Positions 5,223 through 13,926 of a DNA stretch of 13,926 nucleotides are shown here, one piece after another. The notes below the pieces were generated by a model that saw only the letters and a list, made by a program, of their open reading frames with translations, was not told the origin of the DNA and ran no database searches. This stretch comes from a virus. Its lineage: Duplodnaviria > Heunggongvirae > Uroviricota > Caudoviricetes. The stretch lies in IMG/VR virus record IMGVR_UViG_2529292830_000019; one strand, written 5' to 3'. The translations under genes and the position numbers were made by a program. The first letter of the stretch is position 1; every line of letters starts with the position of its first letter.

Positions 5223-6368
5223 TTACTTGCCAGCCTGAATTTCCAGAATCTTGATGGCGTTCGAATCCACCACACCACCGCCCAGATATTTCTGGGTATA
5301 GATGTTAATGAATCCAGGCTCGCTGAAATCCGGACGGGTACGCGTACCGGTTTTATGGTCAACGATGAAATAACCGCGCTTAAAGTCACCGACTGCAATC
5401 ACACCGTCCGGCATAAATTCCAGATATTCAACCGGAAGCCCCAGCAGAGAATCAGGATCACCAGCCTGTAAACGATCGCGCCAGATGTAATCACCAGTGG
5501 CATTTTTCAGTTTTTGTGCGGAGGCGGCTGTATTTGAGTTCATCACCCATACAGCTTTTTTGCGGTACTTATTGCGCAGCGTAAATTTCAGGTCAATCAG
5601 CATATCGGCGCTGAGACTGCCAGTCACTTTTTTCGTCTGGAGCGTACCGAAAGGACGGGTTTTGTCATTATCCGTAGTGCGCGGGAAAGTCAGGAAACCT
5701 TTGGCTTTTTTCTCGCCATCCCCGGAAACCAGATCCGTTTCTTCGGTATCAACGAAAGTGTCGCCAATTTCAGAAGATAACCAGCCCATAATATCGACTT
5801 CGGAAAAATCGATAATTTCCTGAGTGGTTTTCGGGTAAGCGTAGATCGGATACAGGCGGATACTGACTTCATTCAGTTTTGGGGTTGCCGTCTGGTTACG
5901 TGCCGCACCTTCTTCGCCGTGTCCCACGACCGCACCCCCGGCAGAAACCAGTTGCTTAAATTCATTACTGTGAATGGTTTTAACAGTACAGATTTTACGC
6001 ATCACCGACTCATCAGAAAGCTGACGCATAATTTCTCTGTTCAGTTCCGGGATAACCGTATAACCACCATCAGCCGGAACACTGCCGGACAGGTTGCGGG
6101 TTTCCCCGGTCAGAATGTAAGAGCGTAGCTCATTTTTGGTGATTTTATCTTCGACGGGAACACCAGGCTGGTTACGTTCTTCATCAGCCACAGACTCGAG
6201 GCGGGAAATTTCTGTGTCGAGGGAATCGGCTTTTGCACGCAGTTCATCAAACTGTTTGCCTTCGTCATCGGTTAGACTGCGGTTTTCACTGTCGGCTTTT
6301 TCCAGCAGGGATCGCATCTGGTTTTTCAGGGCGGTTTTTTGCTGGCGGAGTTCGATTAATTTCTTCAT
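5223..6368 (-). CDS. HK97-family major capsid protein, 381 aa
   Basis: N-terminal coiled-coil delta-like region (MKKLIELRQQKTALKNQMRSLLEKA...) followed by an HK97-fold-like body; size is typical. Confidence 0.9.
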   Translation of the reverse strand: MKKLIELRQQKTALKNQMRSLLEKADSENRSLTDDEGKQFDELRAKADSLDTEISRLESVADEERNQPGVPVEDKITKNELRSYILTGETRNLSGSVPADGGYTVIPELNREIMRQLSDESVMRKICTVKTIHSNEFKQLVSAGGAVVGHGEEGAARNQTATPKLNEVSIRLYPIYAYPKTTQEIIDFSEVDIMGWLSSEIGDTFVDTEETDLVSGDGEKKAKGFLTFPRTTDNDKTRPFGTLQTKKVTGSLSADMLIDLKFTLRNKYRKKAVWVMNSNTAASAQKLKNATGDYIWRDRLQAGDPDSLLGLPVEYLEFMPDGVIAVGDFKRGYFIVDHKTGTRTRPDFSEPGFINIYTQKYLGGGVVDSNAIKILEIQAGK

Positions 6369-6602: not shown

Positions 6603-6634
6603 CTGAAAAAAGACCCGGAAAAAATCCGGGCCTT
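6603..6634 (-). terminator. Rho-independent terminator separating the SSB/FinO operon from the head operon
   Basis: Minus-strand RNA: GGCCCGGA-UUUUU-UCCGGGUC stem-loop followed by UUUUUU, immediately after the stop of the 82-aa ORF at 6642. Weaker U-run on the plus strand. Confidence 0.55.
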
Positions 6635-6641
6635 TATCGCT

Positions 6642-6890
6642 TTATTGTTTCACTGGCTCCCGCATTCTGCGTCTTATTTTCCACAAATATTCGATCATCG
6701 CTTCCACCTGCTCACGGTTGGTTGCGAAAATTTCCCCGGTCAGTGAGCTACGCAGAAAATCATGATGATCCACAAAAAATAACGCATCGGAAGAAAGCAA
6801 CCGACGATATTTTTTTGCTGTCGTGGTTTCCAGATCATCAAAACCATGAAGCTTTTTATGTTGCTGAACTTCTTCAAATGTCACTGGCAT
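6642..6890 (-). CDS. Hypothetical protein, 82 aa
   Basis: ATG at 6890 overlaps the upstream gene by 10 nt (coupled). No family recognised. Confidence 0.5.
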   Translation of the reverse strand: MPVTFEEVQQHKKLHGFDDLETTTAKKYRRLLSSDALFFVDHHDFLRSSLTGEIFATNREQVEAMIEYLWKIRRRMREPVKQ

Positions 6891-7411
6891 GTATCCCCCT
6901 TTGCTGCCCGGCGCTGGCGCTTGTGCTTCTCATTCAGCACCATCAGCCGTGTTTCTGCCTCCTGCTGTTCCTGTGGTGTCACTTCCCCACATGGCTGGCC
7001 TTTCAGGTCGTAACGTGCGCCACCAGCTATCAGGGCGCGGTAATAGCGCGGAGACTGCGCATAGGATGCCAGCGTCGCACGTAATACCCCCGACCCGAAT
7101 GCCAGCCCCCTGACGGCGATATCCTGCATCAGGTCGTCGAATATCCCCACCTTAAGCGGCTTCGGTGCTTTATGGCTGAATAAGTCAGGCCACATCTCAG
7201 TGAGGCGGTTAACGCGTCGGCGGTTTTTGCGCTGCCTTTTGGTCATATGCTGCCACGGTGTCGCCCCTGTGGGCTTCTGCTGTGCGTTCTGATTGCCGGG
7301 TATCACTTTATGCGCCGATGTGGTTTTATCCTGCTCTTGCGCCGCCTGCGTCGTTTTCTGCGGCGTGCCGTAAATGCCTTTCGGCTTCCGGTTAATGGTC
7401 AGCGTTGTCAT
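6881..7411 (-). CDS. FinO/ProQ-domain RNA-binding protein (RNA chaperone-like), 176 aa
   Basis: Basic N-terminus followed by WPDLF...KPLKVGIFDDLMQDIA...LRATLASYAQSPRYYRALIAGGARYDLKGQPCGEVT, which parallels F-plasmid FinO (WPGLF...) and ProQ (KPLKIGIFQDLV...RVDLDGNPCGEL). GGGGGAAGG RBS. Confidence 0.7.
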   Translation of the reverse strand: MTTLTINRKPKGIYGTPQKTTQAAQEQDKTTSAHKVIPGNQNAQQKPTGATPWQHMTKRQRKNRRRVNRLTEMWPDLFSHKAPKPLKVGIFDDLMQDIAVRGLAFGSGVLRATLASYAQSPRYYRALIAGGARYDLKGQPCGEVTPQEQQEAETRLMVLNEKHKRQRRAAKGDTCQ

Positions 7412-7447
7412 GCCTTCCCCCGTAATTACTCTGTTCGCTGTTGTGAA

Positions 7448-7873
7448 TTAAAACGGTATGTTATCCCCGTACGGGTCATCGTGCTGGCTTGTCTGTTGTT
7501 TTGCCCTGTTCAGTGCGTCAGTGGCCTGGCCCTGTTGACCTTTTTTGCCGCCCGGTCGCGCCGTTCGCGCACTGATTACGCTGTCTGCAATAACCTGCCA
7601 GCCCTGCCGCGTTTCCCCGTTCTGGCCTGTCCACTGGCTCACCTGCATGTTACCCGCCACGCTCACCAGTTCGCCTTTGTGGTGTTTTGCCAGTGCGTCG
7701 GCCTGTCTGCCAAACACCAGGACAGATAACCACATCGTCGCCGTTCCGTCATCTGCCTGGCTGCATGGCAGGGGAACCGCCATACTCGCCATCGCCATTT
7801 GTGTCCCCTTGCTGGTGGTCTTTAACTGCGGGTCAGCCACCAGCCGCCCGTAAGCCGCTATCTGTGCTGTCAT
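7448..7873 (-). CDS. ssb: Single-stranded DNA-binding protein (SSB), 141 aa
   Basis: OB-fold-like core (WLSVLVFGRQADALAKHHKGELVSVAGNMQVSQWTGQNGETRQGW) and an acidic C-terminal tail ending DDPYGDNIPF, matching the SSB ...DDDIPF tail. ATG overlaps the upstream stop (ATGA). Confidence 0.8.
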   Translation of the reverse strand: MTAQIAAYGRLVADPQLKTTSKGTQMAMASMAVPLPCSQADDGTATMWLSVLVFGRQADALAKHHKGELVSVAGNMQVSQWTGQNGETRQGWQVIADSVISARTARPGGKKGQQGQATDALNRAKQQTSQHDDPYGDNIPF

Positions 7874-8115
7874 GCTGTCTGTTCTCCGGTTTTAACGTTG
7901 ATGGTTGTCACCTGTTCCGCTTCGGCAATCTCCCGTTCTGTCAGTGTGGCAAAGTTTGCCGCTGCCGTGGTCATGAATGCGCTTACCAGTTCGGGATGTG
8001 CTTTTGCGTACCCTTCTCCCGCGTTGCGGTCGATGATTTTTATCGCCACCCTCAGCCAGTGTTCTGTCAAATCAAGGGTGTGAGATTGTGGTTTTTTTGC
8101 GTGCTTCGTTGTCAC
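7870..8115 (-). CDS. Hypothetical protein, 81 aa, first gene of the SSB operon
   Basis: GTG start at 8115..8113 with GAGGT 7 nt upstream. No family recognised. Confidence 0.45.
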   Translation of the reverse strand: MTTKHAKKPQSHTLDLTEHWLRVAIKIIDRNAGEGYAKAHPELVSAFMTTAAANFATLTEREIAEAEQVTTINVKTGEQTA

Positions 8116-8159: not shown

Positions 8160-8400
8160 CCTTCACCTGTTCACCTTTTGAGATTTTCCCTTTTTATTCA
8201 TAATGTTAAGGAGTGAACAGTTTCACAAAAACTATTCACCAACTGTTCACCACTGTTCACCCTTAAAGCTCAATAAATAATCAAAAAGGTGAACAGTGAA
8301 TAGTTTGGTGAACAGTTCACAAATAACTGTTCACCCTATAATGTACTGATATAAAAGATATTTATAACAGGGTGAACAGTGGTGAACAGTTATTCCATAA
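8160..8400. repeat. Iteron-type replication origin: about ten copies of CTGTTCACC / GGTGAACAG in both orientations in AT-rich DNA, directly 3' of the primase gene
   Basis: Forward copies at 8167, 8243, 8253 and 8327; reverse copies at 8212, 8288, 8307, 8381 and 8391; variants CTATTCACC (8232) and TGAATAG (8297). Several are 10 bp apart. The motif equals the P4 type I iteron TGTTCACC as I recall it. Confidence 0.65.
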
Positions 8401-8402
8401 GT

Positions 8403-10217
8403 TTAATTTTTGCTGTCGTCATTTGTGACCGATGCACATGATGGCATCCAGTCTTCTGAATCCTCTGTCAGTGTCACATTTGAACGCAAACCGTGCTTCG
8501 TTTTCCGTTTTATATACTCCCTGCCATATTCCGCCATTGCCCCCGGCATATCTTTACCGAAGCGCGTCAGTGTTACAGGTTTACCGAATCCGTGTGCCCT
8601 CATATATGCCAGATAGGCGTGATAAAGATACCTGCGCGGACTGAACGGAATAATTTCGGCATTACCCACTAACAGACCATCACACATTACCGACGACATG
8701 AGATAGCCACAGAAGTCCACCAGCGAATCGCCCTCGCGTTTTATCACCAGAGCTTCTTCTGATTTCTGCTGCTCATACAGCAGGCGTTTAGCTTCGTCCT
8801 GGTCAGAAAAACGAGTAAGCAGATGGCGAATCACAACCGCCAGCTCTCCTTCTATTTTTTCTGCCAGCATGGGGTCGCGCTCGTTCTCCGGTACAACCTC
8901 CGAAAAATTGAATATCACCCGACGACGTGAGATCCCCCCGCTGCGGTCACTGAATGACATGGCGTTATTGTTCACCGCCAGCACGACCGCCTGAATGCGT
9001 GTTGAGTAGGGGGCTTTATGCTTCGGGTCGATTGCCACCTTGTCACCGCCTGTAATGGCCTTAATTCCTGCGCCATCACCAGCGTAGCGGGTCATATCCG
9101 GCATGATAATCAGCGAAAAGCCAACCACTAACGCGCGTTCCCTTGCATCTTCCAGCGCCTTCATGCTTGCCGATACTGTGTTGGCCTTACCCGCCAGCAT
9201 AGTGCAAATCTCCGCCATCACGCTTTTACCACTTCCCCCTGGACCTGTTACCTCAATGAATAACTGCCAGTCGTACCGGTTCGCCAGCACCATGAATAAT
9301 GCAGCCAGCACGCGATCCGTCTTGCGGTCATTCTCTGCCACCGAGCAGCGTAACCACTTCCAGAAATTCGGCGCATGTGTTGCCAGCGTTTCCCCCTCTG
9401 CTGGTGGGCTGAAAGGTAATTCACTGGCAATTAACAACCAGTCGTTTTTGTTATGCTCCCGAAAATTACCTGTTCTGGTATCAAATACCCCGTTACTGAA
9501 TCCAATCAGGTTACGGGCTGTATTCCCCATTACAGGCAAACTTAACTTCATGGTATCGACCGCCGATTTAATGGCGTTCTGCGAATAGCTGATCTCCGCA
9601 TCAATGAAAATCTGCGCCATAGCACGCTGTAACTCTTTATCCTGAATCGGCTCCCATACAACGCCGTTGTAATGGTGAACAGTGTCAGAGTCGGCATGAA
9701 TCGCCAGTTCACCGCCATAATGTGCCAGGAGAACTTCGCCGCGCTGGCTTGCTCCCATCTGGTTAAGCGCCAGTGGTGCGGCGCTGTCTTCTGTTTTTTT
9801 CTTAACAGGAAGCTGAATCACCAGACCATCAGAAAGATTCTGGCGCTCACGGGCCAGATATTCGCGCCAGTTCTGCACCTCCTGACCGTGCATACCCTCA
9901 GGATAAAAATTTGCATCCTGTACGCCTGCCGCCGCCAGCTTCTGACCAATCGCCTTTATCATTACTGGCGCAAGATATCCGGCCCTGAATATGCGCACGG
10001 ATTTTCTGCCTTCCGGCACAATTTGCAGCTTATCCAGTTCGGATAACTGCTGCTCCCCAAGCCACACAGGAGGCTCATTATCTCCGGCCATACGCGCGTC
10101 ATGTTCCTGCCATTGTTTTGCGTGTGACCAGGCATCACTACCCGCAAAAATAATGACTTCTGTTTCTTTGTGTTTTATGCCGCGTGACTGCTGTTTTACG
10201 TTCGGTGCCAGTTTCAT
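8403..10217 (-). CDS. Primase-helicase replication initiator (P4 alpha / D5-type, SF3 helicase Walker A), 604 aa
   Basis: Walker A GPGGSGKS within a D5-like helicase region, with a primase-like N-terminal half. ATG overlaps the upstream ORF stop (ATGA); the iteron origin lies immediately downstream. Confidence 0.85.
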   Translation of the reverse strand: MKLAPNVKQQSRGIKHKETEVIIFAGSDAWSHAKQWQEHDARMAGDNEPPVWLGEQQLSELDKLQIVPEGRKSVRIFRAGYLAPVMIKAIGQKLAAAGVQDANFYPEGMHGQEVQNWREYLARERQNLSDGLVIQLPVKKKTEDSAAPLALNQMGASQRGEVLLAHYGGELAIHADSDTVHHYNGVVWEPIQDKELQRAMAQIFIDAEISYSQNAIKSAVDTMKLSLPVMGNTARNLIGFSNGVFDTRTGNFREHNKNDWLLIASELPFSPPAEGETLATHAPNFWKWLRCSVAENDRKTDRVLAALFMVLANRYDWQLFIEVTGPGGSGKSVMAEICTMLAGKANTVSASMKALEDARERALVVGFSLIIMPDMTRYAGDGAGIKAITGGDKVAIDPKHKAPYSTRIQAVVLAVNNNAMSFSDRSGGISRRRVIFNFSEVVPENERDPMLAEKIEGELAVVIRHLLTRFSDQDEAKRLLYEQQKSEEALVIKREGDSLVDFCGYLMSSVMCDGLLVGNAEIIPFSPRRYLYHAYLAYMRAHGFGKPVTLTRFGKDMPGAMAEYGREYIKRKTKHGLRSNVTLTEDSEDWMPSCASVTNDDSKN

Positions 10218-11159: not shown

Positions 11160-11258
11160 AGCTACCTCGATACGCTTTCTATCGTTGGTGGTTAGAAGCC
11201 CTGCGAGTGGTAACGACACTTGCGGGGCTTTGTCTTTTCATCGATTACCTTAATAAAG

Positions 11259-11339
11259 GTGTCAGCCACTATACTAGTGACAGGTGTCAGCCACGTCAAT
11301 AGTGTTTTTCTATTTTCTTGTGTGTATACTGTCAGCCAC
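11259..11339. promoter_or_regulatory. Divergent operator region: three GTCAGCCAC repeats (11261, 11286, 11331), palindrome TGACAGGTGTCA (11278-11289) and two TATACT -10-like hexamers
   Basis: Read directly. Repeats overlap the -10-like elements of both the leftward promoter and the rightward promoter for the RHH gene. Confidence 0.5.
11271..11299 (-). promoter_or_regulatory. Candidate leftward promoter for the replication operon (-35 TTGACG at 11299..11294, 17-nt spacer, -10 TAGTAT at 11276..11271)
   Basis: Hexamers read on the minus strand. The spacer contains a GTCAGCCAC repeat and the palindrome TGACAGGTGTCA. Confidence 0.4.
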
Positions 11340-11360
11340 CTAATAACAAGGAAATCAGAT

Positions 11361-11540
11361 ATGGCAACGAAAGCAGTTAATGGAAAATCCAAAAAACTTG
11401 AGGCACGAGTACCCCATGCAATAGCTGACGCTGTAGAAAATTTAAAGGAAGAAGGCGAAAGCACTGGGCAATTTATCGTTTCGGCGCTTGAAGGTGAGAT
11501 CAAACGCCGCCAGCGCCGGAAGGCCAAAGAGCAGGAATAA
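11361..11540 (+). CDS. Small ribbon-helix-helix (CopG/Arc-like) DNA-binding protein, 59 aa; candidate repressor
   Basis: ATG at 11361 with AAGGA 8 nt upstream. KLEARVPHAIADAVENLKEEGES...FIVSALEGEI fits a beta-strand then two helices. The upstream part of the ORF-track frame is probably not coding. Confidence 0.55.
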   Translation: MATKAVNGKSKKLEARVPHAIADAVENLKEEGESTGQFIVSALEGEIKRRQRRKAKEQE

Positions 11541-11597
11541 CCATCACCAGCGCCGTGGTGTAAGGTATTACGGCGCATTGCTATGCAGGACAACACA

Positions 11598-11771
11598 ATG
11601 ACCGATAAAGAATTGACCAAAACATTATCACCGACACGGAAAAGACGACGCAGAAAGATAGAGCATGAATCAGAAAGATTCGCGCCATGTGCTTTTGCCC
11701 TTGAGCAATTCCTTAAAGAGTACAGGGAAAAGCGCTCATTGCAGGTATGGCAACGAACTGAACCAGACTGA
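11598..11771 (+). CDS. Hypothetical small basic protein, about 57 aa (alternative ATG at 11583)
   Basis: ORF following the RHH gene on the same strand, with AGGA 7 nt upstream of the ATG at 11598. Contains a KRRRRK tract. Weak call. Confidence 0.35.
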   Translation: MTDKELTKTLSPTRKRRRRKIEHESERFAPCAFALEQFLKEYREKRSLQVWQRTEPD

Positions 11772-11837
11772 TTGCATTGCCCACCAGCCGCAAATGTGGC
11801 ATTGTTGGTGATGCTTTTGTTTTCCCTTGTTCTCACT

Positions 11838-11867
11838 GGCGACCCTTTTGCGGTCGCCTTTGTTTTG
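11838..11867 (+). terminator. Rho-independent terminator after the RHH/small-ORF unit
   Basis: GGCGACC-cttttgc-GGTCGCC hairpin followed by TTTGTTTTG. Confidence 0.5.
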
Positions 11868-11962
11868 CCTGTTATCCGGCAATTGTGGCGCTTCGCCACA
11901 CGGTTGATATAATTCCCCTGCACTGATCCATTTTTTTCGCAGCAGGTTAATTGTTCAGAAAG

Positions 11963-11990
11963 GCGGTTCCTTATCGGGGCCGCTTTTTTT
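11963..11990 (+). terminator. Second plus-strand rho-independent terminator
   Basis: GCGGTTCC-ttatc-GGGGCCGC hairpin (with G-U pairs) followed by TTTTTTT. Confidence 0.5.
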
Positions 11991-12131
11991 ATGCCTGAAA
12001 ATACCCGATAACATGGCTTTTTAGTTTCACCAGGACGAACGAAGCCCCGCCCCTGTTCGGGCGTATATCCAGTATTCATGGTTAGATCTCTGTGTTAGTG
12101 GATGGGTGGCGGCGGTGCGCCGCCAGCCTGA

Positions 12132-12320
12132 TTAGTGAACTGCCTCGCGGCTGTCCTTCCATGCCAGAACTTCGGATAAAGACCAGCCAACGGAACGACC
12201 GCCGAGTTTACGCCGTGATGGGAATTGTCCGGTCTTTTCCAGGCGATACCGACATGAGCGGCTCAGGCCTGTAAGTTGCTGACATTCTTTTTCACGTATA
12301 AAGCGATCTGTGCTTAACAC
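12132..12320 (-). CDS. alpA: AlpA-family phage transcriptional regulator (excisionase-like winged HTH), 62 aa
   Basis: IREKECQQLTGLSRSCRYRLEKTGQFPSRRKLGGRSVGWSLSEVLAWK matches the AlpA (Phage_AlpA) pattern. GTG start at 12320 with AAGGGGG 4 nt upstream. Confidence 0.85.
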   Translation of the reverse strand: MLSTDRFIREKECQQLTGLSRSCRYRLEKTGQFPSRRKLGGRSVGWSLSEVLAWKDSREAVH

Positions 12321-12400: not shown

Positions 12401-12483
12401 TGGAATGGCAAACAGTGATGTGGTGTTCGTCGCTGAAACAGGCGCAATTAGAAAAAAACTATTTTGATTCATTTGGATACAAA

Positions 12484-12513
12484 GGCGTAAAATTCTGCAT
12501 TTACGCCTTTTTT
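12484..12513 (+). terminator. Strong plus-strand rho-independent terminator in the int-alpA intergenic region, with no annotated plus-strand gene upstream
   Basis: GGCGTAAA-attctgca-TTTACGCC (8-bp stem) followed by TTTTTT. On the minus strand the trailing U-run is poor (UUUGUAUCC). Confidence 0.5.
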
Positions 12514-12613
12514 ACATATTTTTAAGATTGATTCGCCAATGTACAAAAAAACAGTAAACCACCAGAAAATCAGACTTATAGGGAGTTAATCAGAAATAAT
12601 CATAGATAATCAG

Positions 12614-12696: not shown

Positions 12697-13926
12697 TTAT
12701 ATTTCTCTGGCTATTGGCAGTGTGGTTACGTTTTCGTGAGTACCCGCCAGTATCTCTAACCGCTCTGTCCACATGTCCAGCGCATTACGTTTCGCATCGA
12801 GATAACGGGAGTGGTTATAGACTCGCTGCATCCCTGGCATCTGGTGAGCGGTGAGTTGTTCGACAATATGCGGATCCACGCCTAAATCGTTCAGCATCGT
12901 GGTAAACGTGCGCCGTATATCGTGTAGTGACCAGTGCGGATGGTTTAATTTTTTGTGCGTGAATCTGCCGTATTGCGACACGCTGGCTTCCTGTTTCAGT
13001 TCCCCGAGTAATAGTCCTGTGTGTCGGTTCTGCTCCACCAGCCGTGTGACGAACGGTAAAATGCTTTCCGGTATTGGCCTGAATATGGCGACCTTCGTTT
13101 TGCTGTGCTCCTTCGGTACTGTCCAGAGCATTTCCTTAAAATCCCCCTCCCTGATCTCCGACAGCCTCAGTTCTCCGGTTCGGCAACCAAACACAATCAG
13201 GAGGCGGATTAGTGCGCTGTAGTAGGGCGGGAATATTTTTTTATCCAGCGCCTGTAATAATTCGCCCAGTTCTTTGTTACTAAGCACGCGTTCGCTTATG
13301 CCCGGCTTTTTGCCAACGTCCACCACGTTGAGATCATCCAGAACGTTACTGACTGCGTAGCGACGTTTACGGCAGAACTTAAGCGCCTGTTTACACGCCT
13401 GCATCATGTGACCAGACGTTACGGGGGATTTTTTGCGTATCCGGTCAAAACAGGCCAGCCAGTGACGTAATTCGCATTTATCCAGTGGCATGTTACCGAT
13501 GTGCTGTATGACGTGATTATTCAGGCGACTTTTCAGGCATACATAATCGACACGGTTTTCCTTTCCGTGCGTTTCCAGCCAGTAACTGATCGCATCGCCA
13601 ACCGTTACGGGTTTTAACGCTTCCTGCACAGTGTAGTTCAGTTCATGACGTGGGTTTTTCCCTTCTGCCAGCCATGCACGACACTTTGCGGCTTTTTCCC
13701 TGGCTGCTTTAAGGCTCAGATCGGGATAGTTTCCCAGCTTCAGGCGTTCCGGTGTGGTATCCCTTCCCGTTCCAGCCCTGTAGGTGAAGTACCAGGTCAA
13801 TTTACCTGATGTTAAATATTTCACGCTCAGATTACCGCCATCGCTATAGAACGTATTTTTCTCCGCTGGCTTACCATAAAGTTTTCTTAACAATGTATCG
13901 TTCAGTTTGTTAAGCGCTCTGCTCAC
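12697..13926 (-). CDS. int: Tyrosine recombinase / integrase, P4/CP4-57 type, at least 409 aa; 5' end at or beyond the window edge
   Basis: N-terminal arm-binding-like region (LNDTLLRKL...GNLSVKYLTSGKLTWYFTYR...LKLGNYPDLSLKAAREKA) and a catalytic domain with HDIRRT and the C-terminal tyrosine region. The frame is open to the last base; the codon at 13926..13924 is GTG. Confidence 0.9.
   Translation of the reverse strand: MSRALNKLNDTLLRKLYGKPAEKNTFYSDGGNLSVKYLTSGKLTWYFTYRAGTGRDTTPERLKLGNYPDLSLKAAREKAAKCRAWLAEGKNPRHELNYTVQEALKPVTVGDAISYWLETHGKENRVDYVCLKSRLNNHVIQHIGNMPLDKCELRHWLACFDRIRKKSPVTSGHMMQACKQALKFCRKRRYAVSNVLDDLNVVDVGKKPGISERVLSNKELGELLQALDKKIFPPYYSALIRLLIVFGCRTGELRLSEIREGDFKEMLWTVPKEHSKTKVAIFRPIPESILPFVTRLVEQNRHTGLLLGELKQEASVSQYGRFTHKKLNHPHWSLHDIRRTFTTMLNDLGVDPHIVEQLTAHQMPGMQRVYNHSRYLDAKRNALDMWTERLEILAGTHENVTTLPIAREI

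Follow-up and report, generated by a model that had tools for sequence, protein, structure and literature searches.

A FinO/ProQ-domain protein gene in the post-origin slot of an Escherichia coli phage satellite

RESULTS AND DISCUSSION

Gene neighborhood of the FinO-domain gene

The stretch of DNA analyzed here (the window; 13,926 nucleotides of IMG/VR virus record IMGVR_UViG_2529292830_000019) comes from an Escherichia coli element that fits the capsid-forming class of phage-inducible chromosomal islands (PICIs). The gene of interest, at positions 6881 to 7411 on the minus strand, encodes a 176-amino-acid (aa) protein with a FinO/ProQ domain. It lies in a row of four minus-strand genes, in the order orf81 (81 aa, positions 7870 to 8115), the gene for a single-stranded DNA-binding protein (SSB; 141 aa, 7448 to 7873), the FinO-domain gene, and orf82 (82 aa, 6642 to 6890). 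Upstream of the row is a replication origin with ten GGTGAACAG iterons in both orientations (8167 to 8389; the iteron has 17 matches in the window compared to 3.07 expected, ten of them in this cluster), and downstream are the head genes, of which the capsid gene starts at 6368. This position between the origin and the head module is the one described in an earlier annotation made by a model from the letters of the window (the original prediction). The segment from 6600 to 8200 matches the E. coli NCCP 13717 chromosome with 100% identity; RefSeq labels the product there "ProQ/FINO family protein" (WP_001735910.1), beside "single-stranded DNA-binding protein." As an identification this is routine, and RefSeq has it already.

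The neighbor was correctly called an SSB. It scores 60.3 bits against PF00436 (cut-off, 26) and 63.9 bits against TIGR00621 (cut-off, 53.95), falls in phrog_44, and ends in ...DDPYGDNIPF, an acidic C-terminal tip. The two small flanking open reading frames (ORFs) are, as had been proposed, of unassigned function. orf81 (phrog_1231) has no match in Pfam, NCBIfam, or PADLOC, and orf82 (phrog_1957) has none in Pfam or PADLOC. The orf82 family is very narrow (18 homologues), and its AlphaFold2 model, built on a shallow alignment, is unreliable, with a predicted local distance difference test (pLDDT) score of 49.9. A PADLOC search with the FinO-domain protein, SSB, orf81, and orf82 gave no match to a known defense system. 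RefSeq calls orf81 (locus L001, 11271 to 11516) a "DNA alkylation repair protein" in NCCP 13717 and a "hypothetical protein" in 14 other genomes listed; the family searches gave the repair name no support.

The four genes are co-directional and tightly spaced, with overlaps of 4 nt between orf81 and SSB and 10 nt between the FinO stop and orf82. Between SSB and FinO lies a spacer of 36 nt that carries its own Shine-Dalgarno sequence (GGGGGAAGG), which means that these two genes are not translationally coupled. Thus, of the proposed translational link to SSB within one operon, the operon-like arrangement stands and the coupling does not. No recognizable promoter of its own was found for the FinO-domain gene in the window, and an intrinsic terminator closes the unit at 6606 to 6634 on the minus strand (a GGCCCGG/CCGGGUC hairpin followed by U6; −22.3 kcal/mol, z of −5.1). 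The FinO-domain gene probably shares a transcript with orf81, SSB, and orf82, the four forming the last part of the replication operon. Antisense terminator-like hairpins within the FinO ORF (7218 to 7236) were set aside because they are explained by the Lys/Arg-rich coding sequence.

Domain, predicted fold, and pocket residues

The 176-aa ORF contains the motifs WPDLF (aa 74 to 78), KPLKVGIFDDL (aa 84 to 94), and RYDLKGQPCGEV (aa 133 to 144), from which, together with a basic N-terminal extension, the original prediction had recognized the FinO/ProQ family. It had proposed a hidden Markov model search and structure prediction as checks, and both agree with it. The Pfam profile PF04352 matches at 84.9 bits, far above its cut-off of 27 (E value, 4.6e-24), and the alignment joins aa 64 to 168 of the protein with profile positions 5 to 108 of 109. 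Sequence matches in the PDB, obtained with phmmer and with a family profile, are solely FinO-domain proteins (the ProQ N-terminal domain, FinO, RocC, Lpp1663, and NMB1681), and no unrelated fold appeared in the homology search. An AlphaFold2 model built on 39 homologues predicts that aa 56 to 172 (6896 to 7246, minus strand; pLDDT of 75 to 96) fold into a FinO domain whose N- and C-terminal helices are long. It comprises helices at residues 58 to 73, 90 to 101, 107 to 118, 121 to 129, and 146 to 172 and a beta-hairpin at 132 to 143. When this model was compared to the PDB with Foldseek, the first 27 matches were all FinO-domain structures, including 1DVO and 7RGT. The top match was FinO, with a root mean square deviation (rmsd) of 1.9 Å across 102 columns, and RocC matched with a template modeling score, normalized to the target, of 0.69 to 0.84.

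The residues expected to contact RNA are also retained. In the RocC-RocR crystal structure, G52 lies in a beta-turn, R75 makes an N-cap helix contact, and Y87 and R97 form the pocket that receives the terminator's 3′ nucleotide (PMC9674577). In a profile alignment, G89, R111, Y123, and R133 of the present protein fall on RocC G52, R75, Y87, and R97, respectively, which bind the hairpin and 3′ end of the terminator (PMC9674577), and all four are invariant or nearly so among the 39 homologues. Judged from sequence and predicted fold, 6881 to 7411 encodes a real FinO/ProQ-type protein, which would be expected to bind RNA.

The N-terminal extension (aa 1 to 55; 7247 to 7411, minus strand) is basic and predicted to be disordered (pLDDT below 50), the disordered stretch covering about the first 50 to 57 residues of the model. 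Its start, LTINRKPKGIY, is conserved among homologues. Compared with 42 distinct alleles, the ratio of nonsynonymous to synonymous substitution rates (dN/dS) has a median of 0.25 for the gene, 0.14 for the tail, and 0.25 for the folded domain, so both parts are under purifying selection, the tail at least as strongly as the domain. Selection on the tail and its conserved start suggest a functional linear motif.

Subfamily and distribution

Family models, domain content, and context separate the gene from both FinO proper and ProQ proper. The NCBIfam FinO model NF010317 scores 66.6 bits compared to a cut-off of 136, the window contains no tra genes, and none of the 1,565 places where relatives were found is on a plasmid. 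Likewise, the ProQ equivalog NF003434 scores 59.2 bits compared to a cut-off of 127, and the protein stops, at aa 176, after the C-terminal helix of the FinO domain; the linker and C-terminal Tudor-like domain of ProQ are absent.

Of 5,426 complete E. coli genomes, 1,095 contain DNA relatives; a single genome has as many as 9 such places, and no copy is on a plasmid. The phage collection yielded five weak relatives only (below 41% identity). Plasmid FinO-family genes are less than 50% identical, save for three records at 60 to 84% that have no annotated gene under the match. In a library of representatives at 50% identity, the broad family comprises 2,117 clusters, of which 9 match at an E value below 1e-30. 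The spread in E. coli, the absence from plasmids, the weak phage relatives, and the few close clusters together define a compact chromosomal-island clade. A scan with one genome per species gave 6 loci only, too few for statistics.

More distant copies of the clade (64 to 67% aa identity) were found at three loci (L003 to L005) in non-PICI islands of the YfjI/YfjJ type with inovirus Gp2-family genes. These copies are convergent with a conserved hypothetical gene of ∼180 aa, with a 7-nt overlap in L004, an arrangement that would produce natural antisense 3′ ends. One of the three is frameshifted.

Comparison with characterized relatives

The closest structural relative is FinO of F-like plasmids (1DVO), which shares the domain, with 30% identity over the best structural match. 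Like the present protein, FinO is a small single-domain protein encoded by a mobile element, and its core is flanked on the N- and C-terminal sides by long basic helices. Unlike FinO, however, the present protein is borne on a chromosomal island, has an extra disordered basic tail of ∼55 residues, and is accompanied by no FinP/traJ pair. ProQ of E. coli and Salmonella (5NB9, N-terminal domain) gives the best sequence match (profile E value, 1e-19), and the pocket residues equivalent to its Y70 and R80 are kept; ProQ is a core chromosomal gene, whereas the gene studied here is accessory and mobile. RocC of Legionella (7RGU, bound to the RocR terminator) has the same fold (template modeling score, normalized to the target, of 0.71 to 0.81) and the four conserved residues described above, at ∼25% identity, but no RocR-like partner is known here.

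The closest functional analogy for a gene beside a replicon is FopA (YafB) of the IncI plasmid pCol1B9, a FinO-domain protein that serves its own plasmid's replication control via the antisense RNA Inc and repZ (PMC7491321, PMC9977716). This likeness is one of description; plasmid FinO-domain genes are, with the three exceptions above, distant in sequence, and no antisense RNA against the replicase was found in the window. Genes annotated as "ProQ/FinO-like" are also present in the Enterobacter PICI AVS0889 and in Vibrio episomal elements resembling capsid-forming PICIs (PMC13612085, PMC13230959). These share with our element a FinO-family gene in a PICI or a PICI-like setting, but they are annotation-level reports from other genera, and the likeness is one of annotation.

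The FinO-domain gene is an optional occupant of the post-origin slot

The window proteins were mapped onto 80 FinO loci from IMG/VR and onto satellites found via DUF4222 and hyp57, the 57-aa gene of the window. In every PICI locus examined, the FinO-domain gene follows the replicase and origin, and it does so with each of three replicase types. These types, a D5 primase, a DUF927 primase, and a RepA-like helicase, are unrelated and are exchanged for one another ahead of the same post-origin slot, which holds combinations of orf81, SSB, FinO, PerC, and orf82 (loci L013 to L243). The upstream neighbor in 73 informative loci was the replicase or origin in 38, SSB in 31, and orf81 in 3; of the 31 loci in which SSB is the immediate upstream neighbor, 26 share a constant 39-nt SSB-FinO junction. 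On the downstream side, 72 loci were informative, and the neighbor was PerC in 56 (often just 5 to 14 nt away) and orf82 in 16. The window itself has no PerC. Where orf82 follows, the same 10-nt overlap is seen in all 16 loci, with the capsid module next in 15 and the end of the contig in one.

SSB adjoins the FinO-domain gene here, as had been noted, but it is not a defining partner. Among dereplicated satellites sampled independently of FinO, 72 of 75 have SSB and 3 of 75 have FinO, and SSB is present in 69 of the 72 that lack FinO. Conversely, SSB is missing in 30 of 45 dereplicated loci selected for FinO. Neither gene, therefore, needs the other. The exact orf81-SSB-FinO-orf82 block was found in 43 of 5,426 genomes. 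This means that the FinO-domain gene is an optional gene in the satellite post-origin slot, of which SSB is the common occupant.

Terminators and candidate partner RNAs

Linkage of noncoding elements to FinO was scored in a set of 125 dereplicated satellite loci, 52 with FinO and 73 without it. One signal came from the terminator of the FinO unit. In classical PICIs that carry FinO, PerC is followed by a nearly identical terminator in which stem bases are flipped, and the shared motif (GGCC[C/G]GGA-U4-7-CC[C/G]GG plus a U-run) ends the unit both where orf82 is its last gene and where PerC is. It was found in 18 of the 52 loci with FinO and in none of the 73 without it. The association is compatible with binding of the protein to the 3′ end of its own mRNA, and equally with simple linkage.

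The original prediction had named two other regions, 11883 to 11990 and 12484 to 12513, as candidate partner RNAs, and neither follows FinO. The latter is a bidirectional terminator hairpin between int and alpA, in which both strands fold. It is probably the int terminator, the simplest reading of a hairpin lying 184 nt downstream of the int stop, and the segment containing it (12440 to 12520) is present in 7 of 52 loci with FinO compared to 26 of 73 without. The unit at 11883 to 11990 is also, if anything, commoner in loci lacking FinO (27 of 73) than in loci with it (14 of 52), and it occurs in an O157 satellite (L012) that has SSB-PerC and no FinO-domain gene in the stretch examined.

Nevertheless, the region at 11883 to 11990 looks like a small-RNA (sRNA) gene. 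On the plus strand at 11905 to 11990, an extended −10 element, TGATATAAT (11905 to 11913), would start a transcript of ∼70 nt that ends at a terminator hairpin (11963 to 11983) followed by U7. Of 27 sequence variants, all retain the −10 TATAA and 26 retain every one of the nine bases, the remaining one reading TGATATAAC. All 14 terminator variants fold, and compensatory changes were seen in the stem (GCGGUUCC/GGGGCCGC, GCGCUCCG/CGGGGCGC, and GCGCUCAG/CUGGGCGC). The ∼70-nt segment after the −10 contains a conserved single-stranded stretch, GGUUAAUUGUUCAGAAAG; a search for a 21-nt complement of this stretch found none. Because the unit sits between the convergent alpA and ylcI-hyp57 units, its transcript would be antisense to any alpA read-through. 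It is plausibly a satellite sRNA, though not a FinO-specific one.

A further candidate, at 11775 to 11866 on the plus strand, consists of two tandem hairpins, each with a U-run, directly after hyp57 (z of −4.4). It could be an RNA derived from the 3′ untranslated region (UTR) or simply tandem terminators. The first hairpin differs in sequence between lineages, and by eye a few of the substitutions seem to preserve the stem. The segment is enriched with FinO (35 of 52 loci compared to 8 of 73), but it was rejected as a partner because homologous hairpin or terminator variants also lie downstream of hyp57 in loci without FinO, so that the enrichment reflects lineage linkage.

Proposed function and alternatives

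The analysis covered family membership, predicted fold, pocket residues, selection, genomic position, and distribution, and from these we infer RNA binding, co-transcription, and a narrow target range. It is reasonably probable that the protein is a genuine FinO-domain RNA-binding protein, encoded by an optional PICI post-origin gene, and most likely a specialized chaperone of terminator hairpins. Since the gene is probably co-transcribed as the tail of the replication operon, the protein would be made on island induction. By analogy with FinO, FopA, and RocC, it would then hold an intrinsic terminator, by its hairpin and 3′ U-tail, in one RNA or a small number of RNAs, and this may shield the RNA from 3′ exonucleases, speed its pairing with a complementary transcript, or both. 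Candidate targets within the island are the operon terminator (6606 to 6634) and the plus-strand sRNA-like unit (11905 to 11990). The RNA-based regulatory layer that had been predicted for this satellite can reasonably be inferred from the family to which the protein belongs.

Several observations weigh against a terminator-hairpin chaperone. In place of the N-cap Ser of other FinO domains (Ser70 in RocC) the protein has Gly106, and it does not keep RocC K71 and K73; its binding specificity may therefore be different. No RNA partner was tied to the gene by segment co-occurrence, Rfam, or duplex scans. None of the noncoding elements tested in the 125 loci co-varies with FinO once lineage is considered, and the samples of loci, having been collected by homology, lack phylogenetic independence. 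The terminator-motif association itself may reflect no more than a FinO module that moves as one block. An Rfam scan of the whole window (E value up to 1) identified no family, giving only spurious plant microRNA matches on the inverted repeats of the iterons, and a comparison of the candidate sRNA with all translation-initiation regions and the window by RNAduplex gave a best z of −2.5, with nothing standing out beyond its own antisense locus.

One alternative is that the gene is host-directed cargo, a second ProQ that binds many host RNAs or competes with host ProQ and reprograms physiology or virulence alongside a PerC-type regulator instead of serving the life cycle of the island. PerC lies immediately downstream in most informative loci (56 of 72), often within a few nucleotides, related copies occur in the YfjI/YfjJ-type islands with inovirus Gp2-family genes, and the gene is distributed like an accessory one (3 of the 75 satellites chosen without reference to FinO). 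In addition, PICI PerC-like genes have been treated as accessory regulators (PMC11773190), and global binding is possible for FinO domains whose extensions are short (PMC7272453). However, PerC is missing from the window, and the place of the gene inside the replication/packaging string, with no recognizable promoter of its own, argues for expression on induction only; we regard host-directed cargo as unlikely. A role in replication together with SSB at the origin, acting on primer RNA, RNA-DNA hybrids, or structured single-stranded DNA, would suit the constant SSB-FinO junction (26 of 31 loci), a location always just after the replicase and origin, and the recurrent ties of FinO/ProQ proteins to DNA metabolism (PMC9977716). 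It is nonetheless highly improbable. SSB and FinO occur independently of each other (30 of 45 FinO loci lack SSB, and 69 of 72 satellites without FinO have SSB), the same slot houses PerC, which is unrelated to replication, and the conserved pocket residues recognize an RNA 3′ end with its 2′ and 3′ hydroxyls (PMC9674577).

The remaining alternatives look outward to the helper phage or deny a function altogether. Since the clade is under purifying selection (dN/dS median of 0.25), with an intact ORF, functional residues invariant across the 39 homologues, and conserved junctions and Shine-Dalgarno sequence, it is scarcely credible that what remains here is a plasmid or phage FinO gene that has lost its function and is decaying, even though some non-PICI island copies are frameshifted. 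Satellites commonly carry helper-manipulating genes, and the protein might bind an antisense or terminator-bearing RNA of the helper phage, biasing helper development or hindering its reproduction. The restriction of the clade essentially to satellites and islands, as opposed to phages or plasmids, and the lack of an island-internal partner that co-varies with FinO are circumstantial points in favor of such a target, but the idea is purely speculative and very unlikely to be correct. A related and distinctly unlikely extension of the chaperone function is that the island clade, on induction, captures a terminator-bearing antisense RNA, either the sRNA at 11905 to 11990 by alpA or a helper-phage RNA, and thereby switches the island master regulator or helper development. 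If true, this would be the first RNA-chaperone-based layer in the conflict between satellite and helper.

To our knowledge, the FinO-domain proteins studied to date are plasmid-borne specialists (FinO and FopA) or chromosomal regulators (ProQ and RocC). The clade described here resides on phage satellites and related islands in about one-fifth of complete E. coli genomes, outside K-12-type laboratory knowledge, and in the literature searched, satellite FinO-family genes were mentioned as annotations only and no functional study was found. Identifying its ligand would reveal whether satellites employ RNA chaperones to control replication, in induction, or to manipulate the helper, and would also add, in many pathogenic strains, a third FinO-domain competitor for terminators beside ProQ and plasmid FinO/FopA.

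Other features of the element

Every protein of the window maps to the NCCP 13717 locus at 99 to 100%, where, in the RefSeq annotation, an element of ∼14.5 kb interrupts yifB. ORFs and Pfam matches show the minus strand of the window to be an unbroken string of genes from int through to TerL. The string begins with the integrase gene (int; 12697 to 13926) and the gene for an AlpA-like regulator (alpA; 12132 to 12320), followed by small Icd-like and DUF4222 genes and by the replicase, a D5-type primase/helicase (8403 to 10217) with Pfam matches to D5_N, DUF5906, and Pox_D5. After the origin and the orf81-to-orf82 unit comes a head and packaging module, also on the minus strand, with genes for the capsid, protease, portal, connector, HNH, TerS, and TerL. 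The capsid-forming class of PICIs has been described for EcCIEDL933 (bioRxiv 10.1101/2025.02.11.637232). We took its hallmarks to be an island of ∼10 to 15 kb with int, alpA, a replicase and origin, its own genes for each of these seven head and packaging functions, and no tail or lysis genes. Judged by genes alone, from the RefSeq annotation of the NCCP 13717 locus and the Pfam matches, the element has this make-up, and it fits the class because the head and packaging genes are its own and tail genes are absent.

Some smaller features of the control regions were also apparent. The number of GTTGTTC repeats, located near int and upstream of the capsid gene, does not exceed chance (5 compared to 2.35 expected). 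Three copies of GTGTCAGCCAC lie at 11259 to 11339 on the plus strand (5 in the window compared to 0.2 expected by chance), in a control region from which the icd-primase operon and a YlcI/YnfO-family gene diverge. The arrangement is operator-like, and the copies are possibly sites for an island repressor or activator. At 11195 to 11231, the Icd-like gene region has at its 5′ end a 15-bp GC-rich hairpin, which would fall in the 5′ UTR if a promoter-like site at 11299 to 11271 on the minus strand were used. A 295-aa Cys-rich ORF at 11192 to 12079 on the minus strand was rejected as a gene; it has no family match, is unannotated in RefSeq, lies antisense to two annotated genes, and is almost certainly spurious. 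In other genomes, RefSeq places "Icd-like" genes or pseudogenes over the stretch homologous to 11192 to 12079.

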